A stretch of 51,390 nt of DNA from Candidatus Micrarchaeota archaeon (GCA_043805855.1 JAZDHP010000009.1:1-51390), one strand, 5' to 3'. Shown: positions 13,723-37,804, counted from the stretch's first letter. The notes: generated by a model not told the origin, from the letters alone. Numbers and translations: made by a program.

Positions 13723-16700
13723 TTACTGCACTTCTTCGTTTAACTTAACTTCTACAATTGCCGAGCCGTTTTGCGTCATTGCCACTCCAGCTAAACAATC
13801 GGCTTCTTTGTAAACGTTTTGGTTGTGAGAGACAACGAGAAACTGCGAGTCAACTGAAAGCTTTTTCACGAGCATTGCCAGTTTACGGCTGTTTTCTTGG
13901 TCAAGCGCAGCGTCGGCTTCGTCGAGAATGTAAACGCTAGACGGGTTGTAAGTTTGAATTGCAAAGAGGAACATCAGAGCAACGAGGGATTTTTCTCCAC
14001 CACTCATTAACTCTAAATATTTCACTTCCTTGTTTTCCAACTGTACTTTTATTGTTAAACCACCAAGGAATGGATTTTCCGTGTTTTCTAAAAACAATTC
14101 ACCGTTGCCTTTGAAAACTTGCTTGAACAAAGCTTTGAAGTTGCCATTTATAATATTAAACGCAGCCATGAAAGTCGTTATTTTACGACCTTCAATTTCG
14201 TCAATTAATTTCAACACTGCATCTTTCTCAGTTCGCAGCAGTTCAACGCGGCTACGCTGCCCCTGCAATTCCGAGAATTTTGCAGAGTAAAGCTCAATTG
14301 CCTTTAAGTTAACGCCGCCAAGTGAGTCGATGTCGCTTTGCAATTGACGCGAATGCGCAAGTAACTCTGGCTTTGAAGCTTCAGAGAGAGTTTCCTTTTG
14401 TGGAATTGCAATTGCTTCAAAAGGCGCGTATTCAACTTTCAAATTAGTTAACTGACTTTCCAGCACTGCACGGCGTACGTTGCGCGAGTTTACCTCGCGG
14501 TCGAGTTTGTCGCGTTCAAATTCAAGTTTACCTTTTTCAGTACCAATTTTTTGAAGTTGGTTTTCAATTGCATCACGCTTGTCGTACAATTCCTTCAACG
14601 CAGAGGAAAGCGTGCGTTGTTCAAGTTGCTTTTCTTTTAGCAAAATATTTGATTTCTTGACGAGTTCACTGTGTTCTTTAATCGCACTAGCTGCAGCGCT
14701 TAATTCATTGTTTAAATCGTCAAGTTGCTTTTGCAACATATTAGCTTGTTTTTCATATGCTGAGCTCTGTGATTTAAGTGAAGCAAATTGATTAGTTACA
14801 TCTGAAAGTGCTATTTTTAAATCTGAAATTTTGCGTTCCCGCTCGCGAATAGAAAAGCCAAAGTTCTTGTCCTTCTCAAGGTCAATTTTTTGCTTTGCTT
14901 CGAGTGATTTGACGTTTAAGTCTGAAAGTTGCCTTATGAGTGCAGAGCGATCTTCGTCTGCCTTTTCAACTGAATTATCACACTGTTTGATTTCATTTTC
15001 AAGTTGGCTAATTGCAGCTGATAAATTGGACTTCTTTTGTGTCAAAGCTTCTTCGCGCGCAGTTACTGACGCGAGTTCAATTTCAACTGCCTTTAATTCT
15101 AATTCACACTTTGCTTTTTCCTTGCGTTTGACAGTCATTTCATCGCGCATAGCATAGAGACCAGAAAGCGCAGCGTCTTTAGCAATCTGTAGTGCTTTTT
15201 CTTGGTCTTTCAATTCATCAAGTAATTTGCGATCCCGCGCTGTGTTTAGTTTTTGAACTGCACTTCCGCCAAGCATAACTCCAGAAGCTTCTGCAAGTTG
15301 ACCATCAAGAGTAGCGATTCGCGCTTTTCCAATAAGAGATTCAGCATCTTTAAGTGTTGAAAATAAAAGTGTTGAACCAAAAATGTATTGAAATGCTTTT
15401 GCATAGGCGTGGTCAAATTCAACAAAATCTATAAGGAACCCAAGGCAACTTTTTGTCTTTGACATTTTTTCATCTTCGCTGTTACGCGAGGAAGTTCGGA
15501 TTTTGTCAAGCGGAATAAACGCCGCGCGGCCATTGCGACTTTTCTTCAACTCTTCTATAACTTTGGCAGCTGTACGGCTAGAGTCGACAACAACATAGTT
15601 CGCCCTTTGACCTAAACTCACTTGTATTGCAAGCGCTTGTTCATCTTTATAGCTGCATAATTCTTCAACGCTACCGTAAACGCCTTTGTTTTCAAGAGTT
15701 TTTATAAAAACAACAGCGCGGTTCTGGTCAGTTTCACGAAGTGTTCTCAAGCGCGAGTCAAACCCTGCAACTTTAGTTCTCATCGCAAGCAGAGTTTCTT
15801 CAACTTCACTTAACTCATTGTTCAACCTCTTTTCCTTTGAATATAAATCGTTAAGTTCTCGTTCAACAATGTCCGAACACTTCGCGGCGTTTTGCAGTTT
15901 TTCTTTGAGTGATTTTTTGTTTGACTGCAGCTGTTCAAACCCACTGCCGCCATGAAGACGTTCAAGTTCAGCGAGTTTTAACTTTTTAATTTCGCTAAAT
16001 TTGCCGGTCTCAGCTTGGATGTTTGACAAACGTTCCTTGCAGGATAAAACTTCGTTGTTTGCCCTTTCTAGGAACTCACGCGCCTTGTGAAAATCAGAAG
16101 TAAAAGCGTCTGACTCTTTGAGTAGTTTGTCAAGTTCAGTTTGGTCTCGTTTTAAAATGTGTGAAGTGTCGCCAACGTCTTTTTGCAATTCCTTCATTCG
16201 AATTGAATAGCCGCGCACTTCGTCGTCAGCTTTGACTTTTTCAACTTTCAACGCGTTTACCTTGCTATCTTCCATTTTGACAAAACTGTTCTTCTCTTCA
16301 ATAATGGTGCGCGAGCGTTCCACTACGGCAGTCAACTCATCGATTTCTTTTTGCAGTATTAATTGTTTTCCTTGTGAGCGTTTCAAAATCTCTTCGTGTA
16401 ATTTCTGTCGCTCGTTGTTCGCCGTTGTTAACTGAGCGGTAAAAGCGTCTATCTTTTTCCTTATTTCACTTAGTTTGTCGTTGAACTCGCTCATTACTTC
16501 AACTATAGATTCAAATTCACTAGTACCTATAGAAATGTCAATGTAAAGCAGCGAAGCTTTGGCAACGTCGAATTCTTTCTTTAGCTCTAAATATTTTTCA
16601 GCATCGCGCTTTTCCTGCTCGAGTTCAGCAAGATAACCTTCACGTTCAGCTAGAATAGTTGCTGCGCTTTTTAGTTTTTCGTCAACCTGTGCTAGTTCAG

Positions 16701-29807: not shown

Positions 29808-30458
29808 TCATTTTCTTCCAATAAACTGGACAACCGCACGGTTAACTTTTAATCCAGCAACACTACGCGCGTCAACTTTTTCCTTTGCTTCAACTAATTT
29901 AAACTTACTAAACAAACGCTTAGCTTCAACCAGCGAAAAATAGTGGTACCACACGTTGTTCCCCCGACGGAAAGTGTTTCTTTCAATTTCAATTCCCTTA
30001 GCAAAACGAAAATCTTGCTTTGAAAAGCCTTCGAAAAACAACACGCCGCCTTTCTTCAACACGCGCTGAATTTCACTCACGGCAACTTTTCGTTCCTTTT
30101 CGCTCAAATGATCCAAAACATGAACTGCAACAACCGCGTCAAAAGAATTAGCTGCGAAAGGCAAATCACAAACATCACCCACAATTAGCTTCGCCTTTTT
30201 TCCAACTTTTTCTTTCGCTAACTCAACCGCACTAGGAGAAATATCTATACCTGTAACTTTGAAACCGCGGCTAACAAGTGAAGAAAGCGTCTTACCATCG
30301 CCGCAACCGAGCTCTAAAACTTTACAACCGCGAGGCAACAGTGCAAAGTCAAAACTATCTCCAACGCCTCTCCACAACTTACCCTTAGCACGATATTCTT
30401 TTTCCCACGCGTACAAATGCGGCGCCCTCTCTAACAAACGAGACAAATAGCCATCCAT
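29808..30458 (-). CDS. Class I SAM-dependent methyltransferase
   Basis: VLELGCGDG, GIDIS, LPFAANSFD, RVLKKGG. Confidence 0.9.
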   Translation of the reverse strand: MDGYLSRLLERAPHLYAWEKEYRAKGKLWRGVGDSFDFALLPRGCKVLELGCGDGKTLSSLVSRGFKVTGIDISPSAVELAKEKVGKKAKLIVGDVCDLPFAANSFDAVVAVHVLDHLSEKERKVAVSEIQRVLKKGGVLFFEGFSKQDFRFAKGIEIERNTFRRGNNVWYHYFSLVEAKRLFSKFKLVEAKEKVDARSVAGLKVNRAVVQFIGRK

Positions 30459-30579
30459 AAAAGAAATTTAGCAAAGCGCGTATAAAATAGCCCCGTCCAG
30501 TAGAGATTTAAAACTAGTTATGCACAAATAATAACGCCCACTTGGCCGAGGTATCAAAGGCCCGGCCTTGAGGGCCTTT

Positions 30580-30776
30580 GGGTCCATAGCTTAGCCTGGT
30601 TGGAGCACTCGACTGATAGAACCCCCTTTTTCTTCAAAAGAAAAAGGCCGTTCAAGGTTCAAAAAGAACCTTACAGAAATCGAGCGGTCGTGCGTTCAAA
30701 GAACCTTTTCTTTTAAAAAAGAAAAGCCTCACGGAAAAGAAAACTCCGCGAAGAATTGAAAATCGCACTGGGCCCA
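30580..30776 (+). tRNA. tRNA-Ile(GAT) with two introns (37/38: 30619-30678; 59/60: 30701-30762)
   Basis: Acceptor GGGTCCA/TGGGCCC-A; anticodon arm CTCGA-CTGATA|A-TCGAG; T arm GTGCG-TTCAAA|T-CGCAC; BHB-like helices CTGA/ACAG and TTCA/TGAA. Confidence 0.9.
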
Positions 30777-30850
30777 TTGTTTATTTCAATGCCTAATTTT
30801 TTCTTTTCTTTGGCCACGCCTGGCCTTTCTTTTCTAAAGAAAGGCATGGC

Positions 30851-30866
30851 TCGCACTGGGCCCATT
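30851..30866 (+). repeat. 16-bp direct repeat of the tRNA-Ile 3' end (att-like)
   Basis: TCGCACTGGGCCCATT at 30763-30778 and 30851-30866. Confidence 0.85.
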
Positions 30867-31636
30867 TATTTTAACTTCCTAATTTTTTCCCTCAATTCCC
30901 TTTCTAGTTTCTTCGCTTCTGGACTGTGTGAACGTTCTGCGTCAATCCAAACTGGACGTTGGCCTTTCATCATGGCATCTTCTAAGATAATTCCATGGTT
31001 TTCAAGAAGCCCAGGAATACCATGCTCGCGCGATACATTAGTTTCAATTTGAGAATGTCTACCCGTCACTACAGTTGTAAACATTATTTCTGGAAAGCGA
31101 CTTTTACCTAGAAAAACTGCAACCGGCGCTTCGCAACGCACACCTACTTTTCGAGCAACGTGCAAAGTCAACGCCTCTTCTAGAACAGACATATGAGTAG
31201 AATCTTTTTCATCAGCAAACTGCAGTTTTTCAACTCGGTGAAAAACATGCAAAGGCCCCCTGCGCTGGCTACTTTTAATTACTTGTTGCCTACCAACACG
31301 ATAGAAACGCCCCGGGTCAAATATTTTCCATCGATTTGGCAGCATATAATGCCCTGGAAATTCCATTGCACGCCAAGATCTCTCACCCAACATGCACCGC
31401 TCCTTAGGAAATGAAATTGTCTTCTTATTCGCCTCGTTCATCATCGCCAATATATCAGAAGGTGAGACTTTCTTAGCAGCTGGAAATAGAATTAAGTGAC
31501 CACAGTTTGTCTTTGCAACGCGAAGCTTCATTCCATCATGTTCCAGCTCATGTTCTGAAAGTAAAGTAATTTCATGCCGCGCTTCTAAACGACGCGCAAT
31601 CCCCTCGCGCATTTTCTTTAACCTTTCAAAAGCCAT
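30866..31636 (-). CDS. Hypothetical protein, possibly a degenerate Bud32/RIO/Kdo-like kinase fold
   Basis: EEALTLHVARKVGVRCEAPVAV and LENHGII..D...WIDAE echo kinase subdomains; basic N-terminus. Confidence 0.5.
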   Translation of the reverse strand: MAFERLKKMREGIARRLEARHEITLLSEHELEHDGMKLRVAKTNCGHLILFPAAKKVSPSDILAMMNEANKKTISFPKERCMLGERSWRAMEFPGHYMLPNRWKIFDPGRFYRVGRQQVIKSSQRRGPLHVFHRVEKLQFADEKDSTHMSVLEEALTLHVARKVGVRCEAPVAVFLGKSRFPEIMFTTVVTGRHSQIETNVSREHGIPGLLENHGIILEDAMMKGQRPVWIDAERSHSPEAKKLERELREKIRKLK

Positions 31637-31640
31637 GTTG

Positions 31641-32537
31641 TCAAAACTCTCTAATCTCTTTCATCTTTTCATAGCGCTGTTCAATTTCACTGTGCTTTAA
31701 CTTTTGCATGCGATGTAAGGAAAAGTCTTCAGCGTTGAACGAAGCAACTACAGAACCGTAAACCATTGCACGGCGCAAATTCTTCTCGTTAACGTCGCCC
31801 GTCTTTGCTAAGTGACCAATAAACGCGCCGCCAAACGAGTCACCACAACCAGTTGGGTCCTTCACAACTTCCAGCGGATAACTCCCGCAACTGAAGTGCT
31901 TATCTTTCGTAAATAGCAGCGAACCGTGTTCGCCTTTCTTTATGATAACTGCCTGGGGACCAAGGCCAAGCGCTTTCTTCGCTGCGACAACTAAATTAAC
32001 AGTTTGGAACAATTGCCTCGCTTCACCGTCGTTGAGAAGCAAAACGTTTGTTTTTTTGATCATTTCTAAAAGTTTTTCTTTTTTATGCGTAATCCACAAG
32101 TTCATCGAGTCCATTACAACTAACTTTGGCTTGCGCAGTTGTGCAATTACTTGTAGTTGAACGTCTGGATCTGCGTTGCCTAGGAACACAAAACTAGCAT
32201 TGCGGTAACTCTCAGGCAAAACTGGCTGGAATTCAGCCAAACAGTTTAACTCAGTGCGCAAGGTTTTCGCTTCGTTCATATCATACTCGTAAAGCCCGCC
32301 CCAGCGGAACGTTTCTCCTTTCTTTTCAACACCGTCAAGGTTCATTTTGTCAGTAAGCGTTTTCAAGTGATTAGCTGGAAAATCAGTACCAATAATACTA
32401 AGCACGCCTGGCTTTGTGAAAAAAGAACAAGCGTACGCCGAATAAGAAGCTGAACCGCCCAGAACTCCGTTTACTTTGCCAAACGGCGTTTCCACGTCAT
32501 CAAGCCCAATTGTACCTAAAATAATCGTGTCAACCAT
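31641..32537 (-). CDS. PfkB/ribokinase-family kinase
   Basis: LGGSASY, NDGEAR, IKKGEHGS, DPTGCGDSFGG. Confidence 0.92.
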   Translation of the reverse strand: MVDTIILGTIGLDDVETPFGKVNGVLGGSASYSAYACSFFTKPGVLSIIGTDFPANHLKTLTDKMNLDGVEKKGETFRWGGLYEYDMNEAKTLRTELNCLAEFQPVLPESYRNASFVFLGNADPDVQLQVIAQLRKPKLVVMDSMNLWITHKKEKLLEMIKKTNVLLLNDGEARQLFQTVNLVVAAKKALGLGPQAVIIKKGEHGSLLFTKDKHFSCGSYPLEVVKDPTGCGDSFGGAFIGHLAKTGDVNEKNLRRAMVYGSVVASFNAEDFSLHRMQKLKHSEIEQRYEKMKEIREF

Positions 32538-32607
32538 AAAACTTCAAATTTATTGCGCCGTACAACTTAATTAAAACACTTGCCGACTAAATATTTCGCT
32601 GATCAAT

Positions 32608-33315
32608 ATGCACCGTGGAAAAGTTGAAATTGTAGAAATAATTCAAGAAAACAGCGACACGAAGACGTTTCGCTTAAAGTTACTCAACGGCAAAATGGAC
32701 TTTAAACCAGGACAATTTGCAGTACTACAGATTCCTGCAGAGCTAGGCGGAGGGCCAAAATATTCCCGCGCCTATTCCATCGCTTCTAGCCCAACTGAAG
32801 AAATTGTTGAACTCACAATGAACATCGTTGGAATGTTTACAAAACAAATGGACACGCTGCAAACTGGAGCTGTGTTGAACATGCAAGGCCCGTTTGGTCC
32901 CTTTCACTTAAACGAAGAAAAACACCATGACATCGTTACAATTTCAGGCGGCACAGGCATAACACCGTTTAGAAGCATGTGGCGTTACATTGCTGCGAAA
33001 AAGCTATCGATCAAAATCACGCCACTGGTTTCGTTTAAACACTTAAAGGATTACGTTTACACGAAGGAATTAGGCGAAATGGAAAAACACGGCAAAGCAC
33101 TTATAACGCTAACGCGAGAACCTGAGGGAACCAACTGGAAAGGAAATCGCGGCAGGATAAACGCGGAGTTCATCAAGAAACACGTTGGAAAACTAGATGG
33201 AAAAACATTTTTCATCTGCGGCTCTAATAGTTTAAACGATGGTATGTCGCAAACGCTGCAATCGCTTGGAGTTGCTCAGGAAAATATAATCATGGAAAAG
33301 TGGGGGGAGTTTTAA
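32608..33315 (+). CDS. FAD/NAD(P)-binding oxidoreductase (FNR-like)
   Basis: FKPGQF, RAYSIASSP, GPFGPF, GGTGITPF, FICG. Confidence 0.92.
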   Translation: MHRGKVEIVEIIQENSDTKTFRLKLLNGKMDFKPGQFAVLQIPAELGGGPKYSRAYSIASSPTEEIVELTMNIVGMFTKQMDTLQTGAVLNMQGPFGPFHLNEEKHHDIVTISGGTGITPFRSMWRYIAAKKLSIKITPLVSFKHLKDYVYTKELGEMEKHGKALITLTREPEGTNWKGNRGRINAEFIKKHVGKLDGKTFFICGSNSLNDGMSQTLQSLGVAQENIIMEKWGEF

Positions 33316-33316
33316 A

Positions 33317-33631
33317 ATGAGTTTGAGAGATGTACAAGAAGAAGTTGACAAGTGGGCAAGTCAATTTAAAATACCTTATTGGACGCCGCACGAACAAACA
33401 CTACGGTTAACTGAAGAAGTGGGTGAGTTAGCGCGCGAGGTTAATCATCGCTGGGGGCCAAAGAAGAAAAAATCAACAGAAGATTTGAAAGAGTTAAGCG
33501 AAGAAATGGGAGACATTATCTTTACTCTAGCGTGCCTTGCAAACGCGCAGAAGATAGATTTAGACGAATCTTTCAAACACGCGATGGATAAGTGCTACGG
33601 ACGCGATAAAGATAGATATGAGAAAAAATAA
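33317..33631 (+). CDS. MazG-like nucleotide pyrophosphohydrolase (YpjD type)
   Basis: LTEEVGELARE, EEMGDIIF, RDKDRY. Confidence 0.9.
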   Translation: MSLRDVQEEVDKWASQFKIPYWTPHEQTLRLTEEVGELAREVNHRWGPKKKKSTEDLKELSEEMGDIIFTLACLANAQKIDLDESFKHAMDKCYGRDKDRYEKK

Positions 33632-33694
33632 TCTTCATCAACCAAAAACTATTTATAGCTTTAGGTAAGATATTCTTACTTAAGGTGAAAAGAT

Positions 33695-33961
33695 ATGGAA
33701 GTTCCTTTAACATTAACTCGCATTAGTTCAAAAGGTCAAGTCGTTATTCCTGGAAGCTTAAGAAAAAAACTTCATATAAACAGCGGAGAATACTTTGCCG
33801 TTGGCCGGGTAAAAAACATGATAGTTCTTAAATCCGTTTCAGGCGGAATGACTGCTGCAGATATAAAGACACTTGAAAAGCTCAATGAAGCTTGGCAAGA
33901 CCTAGAATCAGGCAGGTTCAAAAAAGGCACATTGGACGAACTAATGAAGGAACTGAGCTAA
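33695..33961 (+). CDS. AbrB/MazE/SpoVT-family antitoxin
   Basis: ISSKGQVVIPGSLRKKL; AGGTGA SD upstream. Confidence 0.88.
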   Translation: MEVPLTLTRISSKGQVVIPGSLRKKLHINSGEYFAVGRVKNMIVLKSVSGGMTAADIKTLEKLNEAWQDLESGRFKKGTLDELMKELS

Positions 33962-33962
33962 A

Positions 33963-34214
33963 ATGAACCGCGAACTAGTTTGGACTGAAAAGTTCAAAAC
34001 CGATGTAAAGCACTTTAAAGATTCTTCACTTTTGGAAAAATTGCGAAAACAAATTGAGAAAATCCTAGAAAACCCAGAAATTGGAAAGCCACTTCGCTAT
34101 AACTTGAAAGGCGAGCGAACTATTTACGTAAAACCTTATAGAATACTCTACGCATTTGACGACAAAAACATTTACTTACTGCGCTTTGAACACCGCGGCC
34201 ACGCATACGACTAA
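33963..34214 (+). CDS. RelE/ParE-family toxin
   Basis: NPEIGKPLRYNLKG, YRILY, FEHRGHAYD; 1-nt gap after the antitoxin. Confidence 0.88.
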   Translation: MNRELVWTEKFKTDVKHFKDSSLLEKLRKQIEKILENPEIGKPLRYNLKGERTIYVKPYRILYAFDDKNIYLLRFEHRGHAYD

Positions 34215-34306
34215 ACTCTGCTCGTCTTCCACATTATCTCAAAATAATTCCGGTAGCTGTCAGCAACGCGTTGGTTTTTTATAAAAATAGCAAGTGGTTT
34301 TTCGTC
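34211..34306 (-). pseudogene. C-terminal remnant of a TrmB-like regulator
   Basis: EKPLAIFIKNQRVADSYRNYFEIMWKTSRV resembles archaeal TrmB-type C-termini; similarity stops upstream and no HTH is present. Confidence 0.6.
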
Positions 34307-34374
34307 CACTTTTTTAGCGCATGTATTTTTTATTGGCGAAATCCTTTTTAACAACTTGAGGTCTTGAATTAGGT

Positions 34375-34623
34375 ATGAGCACTTTCGAACAGCGGTACAA
34401 AATTCACTTGTGGATGGTAAGCCATCCGAAGGAACTGGAAAAACACACAAATGAATGGATCGCAGTAACCGCCAAAGGAATAATAGCTAGCGCTAAGGCG
34501 CTTGCGGATTTAACTAGTAATCCAAAAGTTCAAAAGGAGCGAAATAAAGGCGAAGTGCTCTTTGCGCCAATTCCAGACCCAAACAAAGCGTATGTTTTTG
34601 GAGCTGGAAGTACATATGGCTGA
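34375..34623 (+). CDS. DUF5678-like small protein (copy 2)
   Basis: WMVSHPKELEKHTNEWIAVTAKGIIAS; paralog of 21872..22090. Confidence 0.8.
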   Translation: MSTFEQRYKIHLWMVSHPKELEKHTNEWIAVTAKGIIASAKALADLTSNPKVQKERNKGEVLFAPIPDPNKAYVFGAGSTYG

Positions 34624-35011
34624 CCAAGACTTTTACTATCAATTGTTAGGAAAAGAGCAATACCCCGCTGTTCCGGTAACTATTTACTTTGTAGAAAACG
34701 CCACGCCAACATACACAATAATTGACTCAGGTGCAGATTATTGCCTTTTCAATAACGAATTAGCAGATGATCTTAAATTAGAAATTGAAACTGGGCGTCA
34801 AATTAGTTTAAACGGCATTGGTGGAAAAATAGTGGCTTTTTTACACGAAGTACAAATACAACTTCTTAACCGAAAAATAACTTGCAAAGCACTATTCTCC
34901 AGAGATTTTAAATGGCAGGCAAATATACTTGGAAGAGCTGGTTTCTTCGAAGCCCATGAAATAACCTTCAAAGAAAAGGACAAAATTATACAAGTAAAAG
35001 AAGTAGATTAA
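34616..35011 (+). CDS. Retropepsin-like aspartyl protease (copy 2; start re-called at 34616)
   Basis: IDSGADYC, ILGRAGFF; overlaps the end of the upstream gene. Confidence 0.85.
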   Translation: MADQDFYYQLLGKEQYPAVPVTIYFVENATPTYTIIDSGADYCLFNNELADDLKLEIETGRQISLNGIGGKIVAFLHEVQIQLLNRKITCKALFSRDFKWQANILGRAGFFEAHEITFKEKDKIIQVKEVD

Positions 35012-35042
35012 AAAACAACCCCAATTCTAACTCTTTTACTAC

Positions 35043-35222
35043 GCTTCGATCGTCTAGTTCGGTCACGATCCTTTTATTCCTATAGAGCGAAAAGGTTCGC
35101 TGCAAAAGGACACGGGATTCTCAATCCCGTAACTCGGGTTCAAATGGGCTTTTCTTTTTCAAAAAAAGAAAAGACCCTGGGAAAAGAAAAACTTCTTTCC
35201 CGTGAAAATCCCGATCGAAGCG
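35043..35222 (+). tRNA. tRNA-Glu(CTC) with two non-canonical introns (D-loop ~35065-35105; 59/60: 35145-35208)
   Basis: Acceptor GCTTCGA/TCGAAGC-G; D stem GTCT/GGAC; anticodon arm CGGGA-TTCTCAA-TCCCG; T arm TCGGG-TTCAAA|T-CCCGA with TTCA/TGAA BHB helix; D-loop intron ends uncertain by ~2 nt. Confidence 0.88.
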
Positions 35223-35253
35223 CTTTTTATTTTTAGCAAATAATAGATTAAGC

Positions 35254-35859
35254 ATGCCATTAACTATAGTTGACGTTGAAAACGCGCCTTTGAAGCTATT
35301 GACTAAGCATCAATGGTTACGTAGTGGGGCGCAGACTATGCTTACGCATCCTGATGGGTTACGGGCAGTCAGAGAAATTCAATCTAAAGCTACGGATTTT
35401 CATTCTCTAGTTAGCTTGGTTAATGAACAACTTGGGTTATTGCAACAAAGAAATCAAGCAGAATACGCTGATGTGCGCAAGAGATTTCGTACGGAAACCG
35501 TAAATGATTTTTTTAATGGCGACCAGTATTTTGCATGTGGGGGACAAGCGATAGCTTCGCTTGCTTTGTTCCGCGCGTTAGGGGTTCCTGCGAAGTACGT
35601 TGAACGGTTGTACAAAGATGGAACTTTTTCAGGTCACGTTGTTTGTAAAATTAGACACCCTTCTGGCAAATGGGTTTACTTTGATTCAACTAAACGACTA
35701 CTAGCAGCTAATAATCAACATTCAAAGATCTTAGGCGGCAGAGAAACCGTACGTTTTCGAGAAGGGCTTGACTCACACGATATAGGTATAAAATCCGACG
35801 AAGATTTAAGAAGAGAATGTGACAAATTAAAAAAACAATTTGAAGCAAAAACACACTAA
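35254..35859 (+). CDS. Transglutaminase-like (Cys-His-Asp) protein
   Basis: ACGGQAIASLALFRALGVPAKYV, GHVV, WVYFDST. Confidence 0.8.
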   Translation: MPLTIVDVENAPLKLLTKHQWLRSGAQTMLTHPDGLRAVREIQSKATDFHSLVSLVNEQLGLLQQRNQAEYADVRKRFRTETVNDFFNGDQYFACGGQAIASLALFRALGVPAKYVERLYKDGTFSGHVVCKIRHPSGKWVYFDSTKRLLAANNQHSKILGGRETVRFREGLDSHDIGIKSDEDLRRECDKLKKQFEAKTH

Positions 35860-35866
35860 AACTCAA

Positions 35867-35884
35867 CGAAGCGCTTTTTTATTT
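35867..35884 (+). repeat. Direct repeat of the tRNA-Glu 3' end and trailer (att-like)
   Basis: CGAAGCGCTTTTT(T)ATTT at 35216-35232 and 35867-35884. Confidence 0.75.
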
Positions 35885-35903
35885 CAATTGCCTAGTTGTT
35901 GCT

Positions 35904-36476
35904 ATGTATACTTGCGTTGTTGTTAAGGATCGCGTTTTGTGGATTGATGGAGTTCACATGCACCGTGGCGACGAACCGCCGGAAAAAACCGCTAGCCGAA
36001 TGGCTAGTTTATTGCATCTTAACCGCGACGCAGTTGTACTGGATACGTGCACTGGCCTAGGATACGCCGCGCTAGCGTTAAGCGAAAAAGCAGCTAAAGT
36101 TACAACAGTTGAAAAAAGCAAACAAGTGCTCGACTTAGTAGCGCTTCACAACCCTGCAGTTTTTGAAAAGAAGAACATTGAAGTGATTCACAACGACGTT
36201 TGCGAAATGATATTACAATTGCCTGATAAAAGTTTCGATGCTGTTCTCCACGACCCACCGCGGTTTTCAATGGCAGGCGAGCTTTATTCTGGAGTTTTTT
36301 ATAAGGAGTTGCACCGCGTTTTGAAAAACGGTGGAAAACTATTTCATTACACTGGAAAGCCAGGCGCGAACAGCGGTAAAAATCTATTGAAGGGAATAAA
36401 GCAGCGGTTGCAAGACGCTGGCTTTAAGAAAATAGAGTGGCAAGAAGAAGCGCTTGGATTTAGTAGTATAGCTTAA
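35904..36476 (+). CDS. Archaeal SAM-dependent methyltransferase
   Basis: VLDTCTGLGYAA, HDPPRFSMAGELYS, LFHYTGKPG. Confidence 0.85.
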   Translation: MYTCVVVKDRVLWIDGVHMHRGDEPPEKTASRMASLLHLNRDAVVLDTCTGLGYAALALSEKAAKVTTVEKSKQVLDLVALHNPAVFEKKNIEVIHNDVCEMILQLPDKSFDAVLHDPPRFSMAGELYSGVFYKELHRVLKNGGKLFHYTGKPGANSGKNLLKGIKQRLQDAGFKKIEWQEEALGFSSIA

Positions 36477-36479
36477 TAG

Positions 36480-36537
36480 TTTTTCTTTGGAGTGATCGGT
36501 TAGACCTTTCTTTTTTCTAAAAAGAAAGGGATACCGA
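36480..36537 (-). repeat. Free-standing copy of the tRNA-intron hairpin module
   Basis: CCTTTCTTTTT-TCT-AAAAAGAAAGG (36505-36529) preceded by TTTTCTTTGG, as at 30804-30845. Confidence 0.7.
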
Positions 36538-36538
36538 C

Positions 36539-37804
36539 TTACTCGTATTTCAACGCTTGTGCTGGTCTTTGGTTTGCAGCGCGGTAAGCTGGGATTAAAC
36601 CAGATAAGATTCCAATTAACATTGAGAATAGCAGCATCCCAATTACTAGCGTTGGCGTTACAATTGCTTTTAACGTAGTTCCTGTTCCAGGTGGGCCAAA
36701 TGCAATGTTTAAACTTGAAAATAGATATGCGATGCCTGCACCTATTCCAATTCCAATTAAACCGCCAACTATGCCAATCATGCCGGCGTTTAAGAGAAAT
36801 ATCAAAAGCACGTCGCTATTTGTCGCGCCAATTGCCTTCATTATACCAATGTCGCGGGTTTTTTCCAATACTGAAGTGAACATAGTGTTTGCAATTCCAA
36901 TTGCCCCAACTATAAGCGCGACAAGTGCAATTGCAGCGAGGAACATCGTCATTGCAGTTATAGTTTCGTTAATCCTATCCTGTGCAGATTGAAATGAAAT
37001 TACTGAAAAAGTTTTTGTAAGTTTACTCTCACCGCGAAGATCCATTAAGCGTTGTTCCATCTTTTCAACAACAGGCGTGAAATTCGCAACTGGATAAGGC
37101 AAAACTTGAATTTGAGAAAAGTCATCGCTCGATTCTTTATTCAAAACATTGCGGCCAGCTTTTACAGTCATGTAAAGTGAATTATCTTGAGTGTTACTGA
37201 ACCCAGTGCTTGCTTTTAAAATTCCAACAACGCGCATTGGAACGCCGTTAACTTCAAACTGACTACCGAGGCCAACTTTGTTCTTGAAAACCCTCTCTGC
37301 AACTCTACTACCAATTACAACCCCGTTTAAATCACTGGACTGAATGAACCTACCTTTTTCAAGTTCAATCTTTGAAAAGGAACGCCATTTCATCGGGTCA
37401 ATGCCTTGAATTGAAACAGACGCAGATTCACCGCGATATTCAACCGTAGTTCTATCGCTAATAACCCCCATAACTAGCTTAATTTCAGACATTGAGTCCA
37501 GCAACTGCGCGTCGCGCACAGTTAAGTTTTTCTTTGTTGAACGCGCAGAGTCACGAGCTAAGTAAGGCGCAGCGAAACCACTCTGCGCGCCAGTAGCGCG
37601 GTCAGAACCAGGCGAAATTGTTATAATATCTGTTCCAAATTGCCCCAAACTTTCACTTATACTTGCCTTTGCGCCGTCGCCAATTGAAACGATCAAAATA
37701 ACCGCAGCTACGCCGATCACTATTCCAAGCACAGTTAGCCAACTTCTAAGCTTAGAGTGAACGAGAATGTTCCATGCTAAACGAAGATGCGTAGCTAATT
37801 TCAT
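36539..37804 (-). CDS. MacB/FtsX-like ABC transporter permease
   Basis: RSWLTVLGIVIGV, GIANTMFTSVLEKTRDIGIMKAIGA, PAYRAA. Confidence 0.93.
   Translation of the reverse strand: MKLATHLRLAWNILVHSKLRSWLTVLGIVIGVAAVILIVSIGDGAKASISESLGQFGTDIITISPGSDRATGAQSGFAAPYLARDSARSTKKNLTVRDAQLLDSMSEIKLVMGVISDRTTVEYRGESASVSIQGIDPMKWRSFSKIELEKGRFIQSSDLNGVVIGSRVAERVFKNKVGLGSQFEVNGVPMRVVGILKASTGFSNTQDNSLYMTVKAGRNVLNKESSDDFSQIQVLPYPVANFTPVVEKMEQRLMDLRGESKLTKTFSVISFQSAQDRINETITAMTMFLAAIALVALIVGAIGIANTMFTSVLEKTRDIGIMKAIGATNSDVLLIFLLNAGMIGIVGGLIGIGIGAGIAYLFSSLNIAFGPPGTGTTLKAIVTPTLVIGMLLFSMLIGILSGLIPAYRAANQRPAQALKYE

Follow-up and report, generated by a model that had tools for sequence, protein, structure and literature searches.

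A stretch of 51,390 nucleotides from a Candidatus Micrarchaeota archaeon (GCA_043805855.1 JAZDHP010000009.1:1-51390), referred to here as the window and corresponding to contig C9 of genome G000, carries five copies of a short repeat that belongs to a genome-wide family. The repeat is A/T-rich and is ordered on one strand as pyrimidine arm, loop, purine arm, short linker and second purine tract. A first-pass annotation of the window had taken an element of about 60 nt to be the unit that spreads; the repeated unit is instead a three-tract module of 40-50 nt, and not the whole intron of about 60 nt. Most copies (57/73 in tRNA introns by manual reading) lie within bulge-helix-bulge introns of tRNA and rRNA genes, and a comparison of congeneric species shows that copies have been gained and lost, replaced by others and turned round. 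The three tracts carry the sequence signature of a class II intrastrand triplex, the folding of which is predicted. On balance, we favour the view that the family consists of structure-prone, non-autonomous selfish DNA repeats that are tolerated in spliced introns and spread by copy-choice. Labels beginning with C or L denote contigs and loci.

A genome-wide family of three-tract repeats

The five hairpins of the window, its two GGAAAAGAAAA and two CCAAAGAAAA tracts and the TGAAAA ends of two introns were all found where the first-pass annotation had placed them. The hairpins are perfect (Table 1); GGAAAAGAAAA stands at 30733-30743 and 35180-35190, each time 6 nt 3' of its hairpin; CCAAAGAAAA is on the minus strand, as its reverse complement at 30804-30813 and 36481-36490; and TGAAAA terminates both T-loop introns (30757-30762 and 35203-35208). 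Free-standing and intron copies are the same element, with common clamps, linker and mirrored tract, which bears out the earlier claim of one module in both settings. The two intergenic copies do lie on the minus strand with an identical CCAAAGAAAA, but they belong to different sub-types. The sub-type of the module at 30797-30849, whose linker recurs in tRNA introns of G000, is also present in introns at C22:4557, C10:14261, C59:16121, C29:32972 and C34:1054, and that of the module at 36480-36529 stands after stop codons at C64:12360 and C31:11576 and in introns at C45:25414, C8:3442 and C32:5994.

Under a criterion of a perfect stem of 8 or more and a loop of 3-8, G000 contains 280 perfect hairpins: 75 with the pyrimidine arm first, 4 with the purine arm first and 201 with mixed arms. 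The same classes numbered 2, 1 and 0 (pyrimidine-first), 3, 3 and 3 (purine-first) and 147, 146 and 151 (mixed) in three Markov-shuffled genomes. The 75 pyrimidine-first hairpins have perfect stems of 8-12 bp and form 50 clusters. A pyrimidine-first hairpin stays pyrimidine-first on reverse complementation, so this asymmetry belongs to the element and not to the strand. A duplicate at overlapping contig ends (C20:14452 equals C31:78) and a chance 8-bp coding match (C29:56493) were set aside, leaving 73 real copies, in every one of which the second purine tract follows about 3-19 nt past the hairpin in one orientation. A custom strand-specific three-tract pattern, requiring the hairpin and the mirrored purine tract, found 77 copies; two shuffled genomes yielded 2 and 1. 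The resemblance between modules extends past the hairpin to the clamps, the linker and the second tract. The commonest variant, searched as an exact pattern and the one variant counted, is present in 20 of the 401 genomes sampled from the phylum, with 21 copies in G000 and 9 in G002, and a reversed-pattern control gave 0 matches in the 401 genomes.

Further structure was seen around some modules. The modules of T-loop introns (for example C8:30530 and C17:8408) have a recurrent C.C mismatch at the base of the hairpin, followed by three more clamp pairs; there are 18 such cases in G000. A third, nested repeat (TCTGAGTCA, a hairpin, then TGCTCA) occurs within module linkers or beside modules, at introns C8:9688 and C56:2241, at C45:23348 and at about position 300 of C31. 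At C63:10373-10560, about six extra CAAAAAGAAAAA-like purine tracts follow a free module at intervals of about 25-30 nt.

The second purine tract mirrors the purine arm

Among the 75 G000 copies, 54 have a second tract that matches the mirror of the purine arm over a longer run than it matches the arm directly, 2 show the reverse, and in 19 the two matches are of equal length. An asymmetric arm such as AAAGAAAAGAAG is followed by GGAAGAAAAGAAA, and A6 variants are followed by G-A6-G-A3. In the window, all five copies have a mirrored tract, with 8, 9, 7, 11 and 9 consecutive matching positions. We scanned relatives with the same hairpin finder, covering 363 kb of G002 (about 0.9 Mb in total) and smaller samples of G018, G025, G028, G016 and G024; these stretches were chosen for DNA-search matches on their contigs, which biases the sample. 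The G002 sample held 25 such hairpins, with the mirror match better in 19, a tie in 6 and the direct match better in 0, and the five other samples together held 25, with 13, 11 and 1, respectively. When 74 G000 copies and the 50 copies from relatives were pooled, 90 had asymmetric purine arms, and a full mirror was present in 79/90 and a full direct copy in 13/90.

The second tracts were also shuffled among copies. The observed mirror score was 670 in G000 against 584.6 ± 6.3 (mean ± standard deviation), 223 in G002 against 200.1 ± 3.7, and 436 in the pooled relatives against 386.5 ± 4.5, and in each case 0/1000 shuffles reached the observed score. The direct score was attained by 1 (G000), 594 (G002) and 75 (pooled relatives) of 1000 shuffles; in G000 the direct score is high as well, owing to the symmetric part of the tracts. 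The stronger argument is the number of distinct stem variants that keep the mirror rule: of 21 distinct asymmetric arm types, 19 are mirrored in full by one copy or more, and 4 are repeated in full as a direct copy. The rule is also kept outside introns (36505, 30823, C10:28990, C40:20747 and C64:12360).

A mirror repeat is not producible by copying either strand, and in asymmetric copies it has no full-length Watson-Crick pairing with the pyrimidine arm. The simple structural reading would be a third strand lying antiparallel on the purine arm, with A on A-T and G on G-C; the complementary strand would offer the pyrimidine-motif version, with a pyrimidine third strand parallel to the purine arm. 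The first-pass annotation had proposed either a triplex or a bistable fold for the second tract. The mirror repeat favours the former, and the latter would not be full-length in asymmetric copies; in the symmetric window copies (T4CT4), bistable pairing may be energetically possible. In the portions of Holder et al. 2015 (PMC4666352) drawn on here, a class II intrastrand triplex consists of a pyrimidine domain, a purine domain and a reverse-Hoogsteen domain. The order 5' pyrimidine, purine, 3' third domain was found in 5/5 window copies and the 77 genome copies, and the G000 copies also have antiparallel Watson-Crick pyrimidine and purine domains and an antiparallel third domain with A opposite A and G opposite G. 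RNAfold, which cannot model triplexes, left 59% of second-tract bases in the modules unpaired; the tract was 80% or more unpaired in 31/77 copies and 20% or less in 15/77.

Most copies reside in spliceable introns

We assigned the 73 real copies to host classes by manual reading of flanks and clusters. Fifty-two are sense copies in tRNA introns, about 30 of them in the T-loop and the others at 37/38, in the D-loop, at 53/54 and elsewhere, and five are antisense copies in tRNA introns (tRNA-Trp, Cys, Glu(TTC), Ser and one at C34). One is in a 23S rRNA intron, the rRNA being confirmed by Rfam. The 15/73 non-intron copies adjoin tRNA 3' ends (3 copies), stand in tRNA 5' flanks (2), lie downstream of a tRNA and ahead of a second copy of its 3' exon (2; window 30823 and C32:6162), follow just past protein-gene stops (4; window 36505, C31:11576, C64:12360 and, after the endonuclease gene, C10:28990), or occupy other spacers (4). 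A head-to-head pair of modules is present in several introns.

The 23S gene (C5:57583-61835, L112) measures 4253 nt against 2987 nt for the Rfam LSU model, giving about 1.3 kb of insertions, and one of its introns holds a head-to-head module pair. The tRNA-Ala(TGC) gene in the 16S-23S spacer has two module introns. In the 3' trailers of tRNA-Ala(GGC), tRNA-Ala(CGC) and tRNA-His (C19:14370, C53:5833 and C53:12976), modules stand 5-7 nt past the discriminator base and may be terminators or recent insertions.

In a bulge-helix-bulge scan, the 59/60 introns showed a TTCA/TGAA central helix (4/4), an AA bulge and the 5-bp T-stem as outer helix; the central helix of the tRNA-Ile 37/38 intron was relaxed (3/4). 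The first-pass annotation had pointed out that both of these window introns end in TGAAAA. TGAA must pair with the TTCA of the T-loop and AA is the bulge, so that the hexamer is the 3' half of the bulge-helix-bulge; it is a splice-motif constraint and no evidence of common descent. No tRNA was found in the raw window by ARAGORN, with or without intron search, or by Rfam at the gathering threshold. Excision in silico of 30619-30678 and 30701-30762 yielded an ARAGORN call of tRNA-Ile(GAT), and excision of 35066-35106 and 35145-35208 a call of tRNA-Glu(CTC).

The G000 genome comprises 1.03 Mb in 67 contigs, with 41% G+C and 92% completeness. Sequencing runs searched for the stretch gave one DNA run, with a word share of 0.08, and no RNA run. 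The Rfam tRNA model gave 14 matches in it at E up to 1, 5 of them above the cut-off, and ARAGORN with introns made 11 calls; from these low numbers we conclude that nearly all of its tRNA genes are interrupted. Two relatives gave 11 and 17 Rfam tRNA matches at E up to 0.001. Automatic reconstruction of tRNAs, combining bulge-helix-bulge candidates with ARAGORN, produced a tRNA call in 26/50 hairpin clusters. Some of the top reconstructions held spurious extra introns or wrong isotypes, and they served as a guide while hosts were read by eye; the reference set of intronless tRNAs from relatives (20 genes, 9 anticodons) was too small.

A single splicing-endonuclease gene was found in G000, encoding 388 aa with two PF01974 stretches. 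The protein aligns along its whole length with PDB chain 4fz2 (E 9e-131), the ε2 enzyme of ARMAN-2. It is therefore probably of the ε2 type, a kind known to cut relaxed motifs at non-canonical positions. The ARMAN-2 ε2 enzyme cleaves strict and relaxed motifs, one at 59/60 included, according to the portions of PMC3239211 used here.

Copies turn over between related genomes

A DNA search with window 30300-31300 matched 23/31 genomes. Every match outside G000 fell in modules or tRNA exons, the 435 protein-coding bases having none, and module matches in same-genus genomes reached up to 85-96% identity. The tRNA-Ile(GAT) gene is intronless in the same-genus genome G002 and in G005, G006, G007, G008, G019, G020 and G028. 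In G001 the 37/38 intron is missing, and the contig breaks off at that point; G004 carries a module intron, at 59/60; the gene has different, canonical introns in G016 and G017 and two other introns in G010. From this survey, both module introns of the window tRNA-Ile are most simply read as recent gains. The genes flanking tRNA-Ile in G000 were not found beside tRNA-Ile in the loci of relatives, and the 421-aa gene at the 36505 site had no match in three same-genus genomes.

The endonuclease gene provides a filled and an empty site. The empty one is in G003, where the stop of the endonuclease gene overlaps the start of the gene that follows. In G000 (C10:27783-29050, L070) and G002, an insert of 60-70 nt with an antisense module follows the endonuclease stop, and beyond this insert the gene's final 33 nt recur. 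The second 33-nt copy keeps the stop/start overlap and is therefore the original tail of the gene. The three tracts of this module differ jointly between the two genomes, with T6CT3 in G000 and T4CT3 in G002. In the S7/EF-2 spacer, a module is present in G000 and absent from G002 and G003, and G001 has a different module in a different upstream context.

The same joint change was seen at orthologous introns of G000 and G002. All three tracts change together in tRNA-Leu(TAA), where the run is 2 versus 6, and in tRNA-Pro(TGG), where the runs are (6,4) versus (4,6). The sub-type is replaced at the same position in tRNA-Pro(CGG) at 37/38 and in tRNA-Asp at 59/60, and the orientation is flipped between C31:194 (G000) and L025:6160. 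The first-pass annotation had held that similarity like that among T-rich terminators, with copies fixed at orthologous sites, would speak against a mobile element; instead, the similarity runs past the hairpin, and copies are gained, lost and swapped among congeners.

Some modules stand at duplication junctions

We searched for direct repeats within 110 nt on each side of the 77 three-tract copies, with 300 random sites as a control. Three of the 77 copies scored 20, 17 and 16, against a random maximum of 13, and the median was 7 in both sets. These three are the copies at the endonuclease tail, at C32:6162 and at window 30823 (score 16), and at each of them a gene end is present twice with the module at the junction. 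In the window, the two copies of the tRNA-Ile 3' exon are identical over their first 16 nt and similar over the remainder, with the module between them. Relatives had such junctions at three loci among the 50 sampled copies, with scores of 52 (G002 L028:5362, where the identical bases are a tRNA 5' flank and 5' exon), 26 (G028 L046:11960) and 17 (G002 L026:5637/5714).

Duplicated lengths span 16 to more than 52 nt, and this variability makes them a poor fit to a transposase with a fixed stagger. The pattern fits a replication process that stalls, takes up a module copied from another place and resumes upstream. The 92%-complete genome gave no match to a Y1 (IS200/IS605/RAYT) transposase, the one transposase or integrase family searched for, and no reverse transcriptase domain. 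We also considered whether splicing joins the duplicated gene ends, which have a repeat period of 101 at the endonuclease tail and 85-88 at the tRNA-Ile 3' exon. The bulge-helix-bulge matches were weak, with an outer helix of 3 bp or less, and this candidate was rejected.

Proposed spread by copy-choice and its alternatives

In the mechanism that we favour, the three tracts would fold as an intrastrand triplex, more probably in single-stranded DNA than in the intron RNA. Three points argue for DNA: the mirror rule is kept outside introns, the orientation can flip at an orthologous intron, and the common orientation gives a purine motif in RNA, which does not form according to the portions of PMC4666352 used. 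The triplex would stall polymerases and cause copy-choice (template-switch) events, which would place modules at new sites and occasionally re-replicate a neighbouring segment. Copies would persist mainly where they are harmless, in introns removed by the endonuclease and beside gene ends. Position 59/60 would be favoured in that the nearly invariant T-loop pairs with the TGAA or CGAA end of the intron and gives microhomology between tRNA genes. A stronger version, which we hold only tentatively, is that the repeats are selfish by structure alone: polymerase arrest would lead to copy-choice that pastes copies, sometimes with a duplicate of the adjacent exon, and a product capable of forming a bulge-helix-bulge would be a new tRNA intron.

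Several points weigh against this interpretation. The bias to the sense orientation, 52:5 in tRNA introns and 8:4 among 12 oriented copies outside introns, is unpredicted by a pure DNA-level model and may reflect a constraint that acts on RNA or is tied to transcription. A full-length triplex sits awkwardly with two further features: the second tract of many T-loop copies is in the loop of a second predicted hairpin, and some copies have an outer helix around the entire unit. Of the purine-motif triads, those of the A.A-T kind are the weaker, and the triplex is here read from covariation. Copies share descent and whole modules are swapped, so that copy counts overstate the number of independent events and shuffles are not independent trials. 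Most insertions have no flanking duplication (71/77 copies score 11 or less), and copy-choice is inferred from the minority. Repeats may be mis-assembled in an assembly of 67 contigs, and the host classes come from manual reading and not from a validated tRNA annotator.

An alternative that we regard as unlikely is that the module is a working part of the intron RNA. Its compact fold, with hairpin and purine tract as an RNA triplex or as two side-by-side hairpins, would avoid exon pairing and let the splice motif form, or would stabilise the excised (circular) intron, and free copies would be by-products. The 52 sense and 5 antisense copies in tRNA introns agree with this, as do the clamp helices beside the hairpin, which vary yet remain complementary, and arms of purines or pyrimidines only would seldom find pairing partners in tRNA exons. 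An RNA triplex of the poly(A.A.U) type is also known. However, the mirror rule holds outside introns, flips and sub-type swaps occur at orthologous introns while the tRNA gene is kept, and orthologous tRNAs function without the intron. Stem mismatches show no excess of T.G (0+3) over C.A (1+5), in numbers too small to decide. Purine-motif triplexes are moreover stated not to form in RNA in the portions of PMC4666352 used.

If the module were instead a MITE- or REP-like miniature element, transposed by an enzyme that another locus or another organism encodes, this would account for the high copy number, the occurrence of both orientations, the filled and empty sites and the direct repeats at 3/77 copies, which would then be target-site duplications. 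We consider this improbable. Transposase duplications are fixed and short, whereas the flanking repeats here measure 16 to more than 52 nt and are missing at most copies; the hairpin itself aside, there are no terminal inverted repeats; and the search for a Y1 transposase, the one family searched, was negative.

Less probable again is the spread of whole introns as RNA, by reverse splicing of excised circles and copying into DNA, a route of the kind that the first-pass annotation had suggested. The same intron family does occupy the same T-loop position in about 30 tRNA genes, mostly in sense orientation. Yet the 92%-complete genome yielded no reverse transcriptase domain, antisense copies, non-intron copies and copies at DNA-duplication junctions exist, and the unit swapped is the module and not the whole intron. 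Ordinary T-rich terminator hairpins or low-complexity chance matches can practically be dismissed: several free copies do come right after stop codons or tRNA 3' ends with runs of T4-T6, but there are 75 copies against 0-2 expected, the similarity reaches the clamps, linker and mirrored tract, about four-fifths of copies (57/73) are inside tRNA genes, where a terminator would be harmful, and the reversed pattern had 0 matches in 401 genomes.

Features of the window

The positions of the modules and their host genes are given in Table 1. The tRNA-Glu D-loop intron has the same position and the same initial bases, CGATC, as the module-bearing D-loop intron at C31:2161. The hairpin at 36505-36529 starts 9 nt past the stop of the minus-strand gene 36539-37804.

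Table 1. Modules, introns and tRNA genes in the window
Feature	Position	Strand	Description
tRNA-Ile(GAT) gene, two introns	30580-30776	+	ARAGORN call after splicing; exons match intronless orthologues in relatives
tRNA-Ile intron 37/38	30619-30678	+	One sense module: hairpin 30625-30647 (10 bp), mirrored purine tract 30661-30668, within the loop of a second hairpin
tRNA-Ile intron 59/60 (T-loop)	30701-30762	+	One sense module: hairpin 30705-30726 (9 bp), mirrored purine tract 30734-30742
Free-standing module, antisense to tRNA-Ile	30797-30849	-	Hairpin 30823-30845 (10 bp); second purine tract 30797-30813
Second, non-functional tRNA-Ile 3' exon and trailer	30851-30890	+	First copy 30763-30803
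tRNA-Glu(CTC) gene, two introns	35043-35222	+	ARAGORN call after splicing; exons match the tRNA-Glu of a relative (L009)
tRNA-Glu D-loop intron	35066-35106	+	Decayed 6-bp hairpin CCTTTT/AAAAGG, by direct reading
tRNA-Glu intron 59/60	35145-35208	+	One sense module: hairpin 35149-35173 (11 bp), mirrored purine tract 35181-35191; ends TGAA+AA
Free-standing module between convergent genes	36480-36529	-	Hairpin 36505-36529 (11 bp); second purine tract 36480-36488

A GC-rich element of about 45 nt stands directly 5' of tRNA genes, at 30533-30579 in the window and also on C47, C10, C17, C34 and C45. It consists of a TATA-like TATCAAAGG/TCTAAAAGG/TATAAAAGG box followed by a GC stem-loop ending CCTTT, and it looks like a promoter with a leader hairpin. 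It also occurs within tRNA introns in either orientation (C6, about 15345-15400, and C45:18244-18303).

Relation to known repeats and introns

Potential intrastrand triplex (PIT) elements of bacteria, alias BoxC/TMECO, were reportedly described by Hoyne et al. in 2000. The portions of Holder et al. 2015 (PMC4666352) used here describe TMECOs as G/C-rich and intergenic, with conserved stems and variable loops, count 23 of them in E. coli MG1655 and find their loci more sequence-variable between E. coli strains; PIT elements block DNA polymerase in vitro and are linked to genomic instability. Set against that account, the archaeal repeats have the same domain order on one strand, conserved stems and variable loops, and are likewise dispersed with some inverted tandem pairs, and the sequence around them likewise varies between strains. 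Unlike the bacterial elements, they are A/T-rich and lie mostly within spliced tRNA and rRNA introns, and their copy number, about 75 per Mb, is high. The likeness, in which TMECO composition was compared by description, is one of architecture and not of homology.

Transposition of tRNA introns in Thermoproteales was reportedly found by Fujishima et al. in 2010 (reference 29 of PMC3239211), with related introns in different tRNA genes and positions and recent non-canonical gains; that work is not known to have reported a three-tract or triplex signature, non-intron copies or duplication junctions. Here, too, related introns recur across tRNA genes and positions, but in a DPANN lineage with a different endonuclease type. 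ARMAN-2 is similar in its endonuclease, matched full-length at 4fz2, and in having introns at 59/60, 53/54 and other non-canonical positions, but in the portions of PMC3239211 used its introns are short (13 and 25 nt) and a repeated module is unmentioned. The integration model for Caldiarchaeum resembles our junctions in that a partial direct repeat of the tRNA gene flanks the insert, with intron gain at strain level; that insert is of 1,868 bp with a putative recombinase gene, whereas here a non-coding module of 50-70 nt is flanked by repeats of variable length (PMC3293823, in the portions used). Like MITEs and REP/BIME, the repeats are short, palindromic, non-coding and present in many copies, but they differ in that no fixed target duplication, no terminal inverted repeats and no Y1 transposase, the one transposase family searched for, were found.

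The separate components are already known: bacteria have class II triplex repeats, Thermoproteales have related introns that recur in different tRNA genes, and ARMAN-2 combines an ε2 endonuclease with heavily interrupted tRNA genes. We found no description of triplex-type repeats in archaeal introns in the literature searched, which did not include supplementary intron lists. Within that literature, what is new is their combination: repeats of triplex type form the cores of archaeal tRNA and rRNA introns, their sites may be filled in one genome and empty in another, and some copies mark duplication junctions.

The route by which archaeal tRNA introns arrive is still open, and no general route has been found, according to the portions of a 2026 Asgard preprint used here. 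In this archaeon the intron cores can be recognised and counted as a repeat that obeys a three-strand sequence rule. Occupied and unoccupied sites within one genus, together with duplication junctions that point to replication-based copying, make intron gain testable. The interrupted genes explain why standard tRNA finders recover few tRNA genes in these genomes. If selfishness by structure alone is true, it would constitute a protein-independent route of archaeal intron gain, and it would explain the extreme intron load of the genus and the preference for the invariant T-loop.

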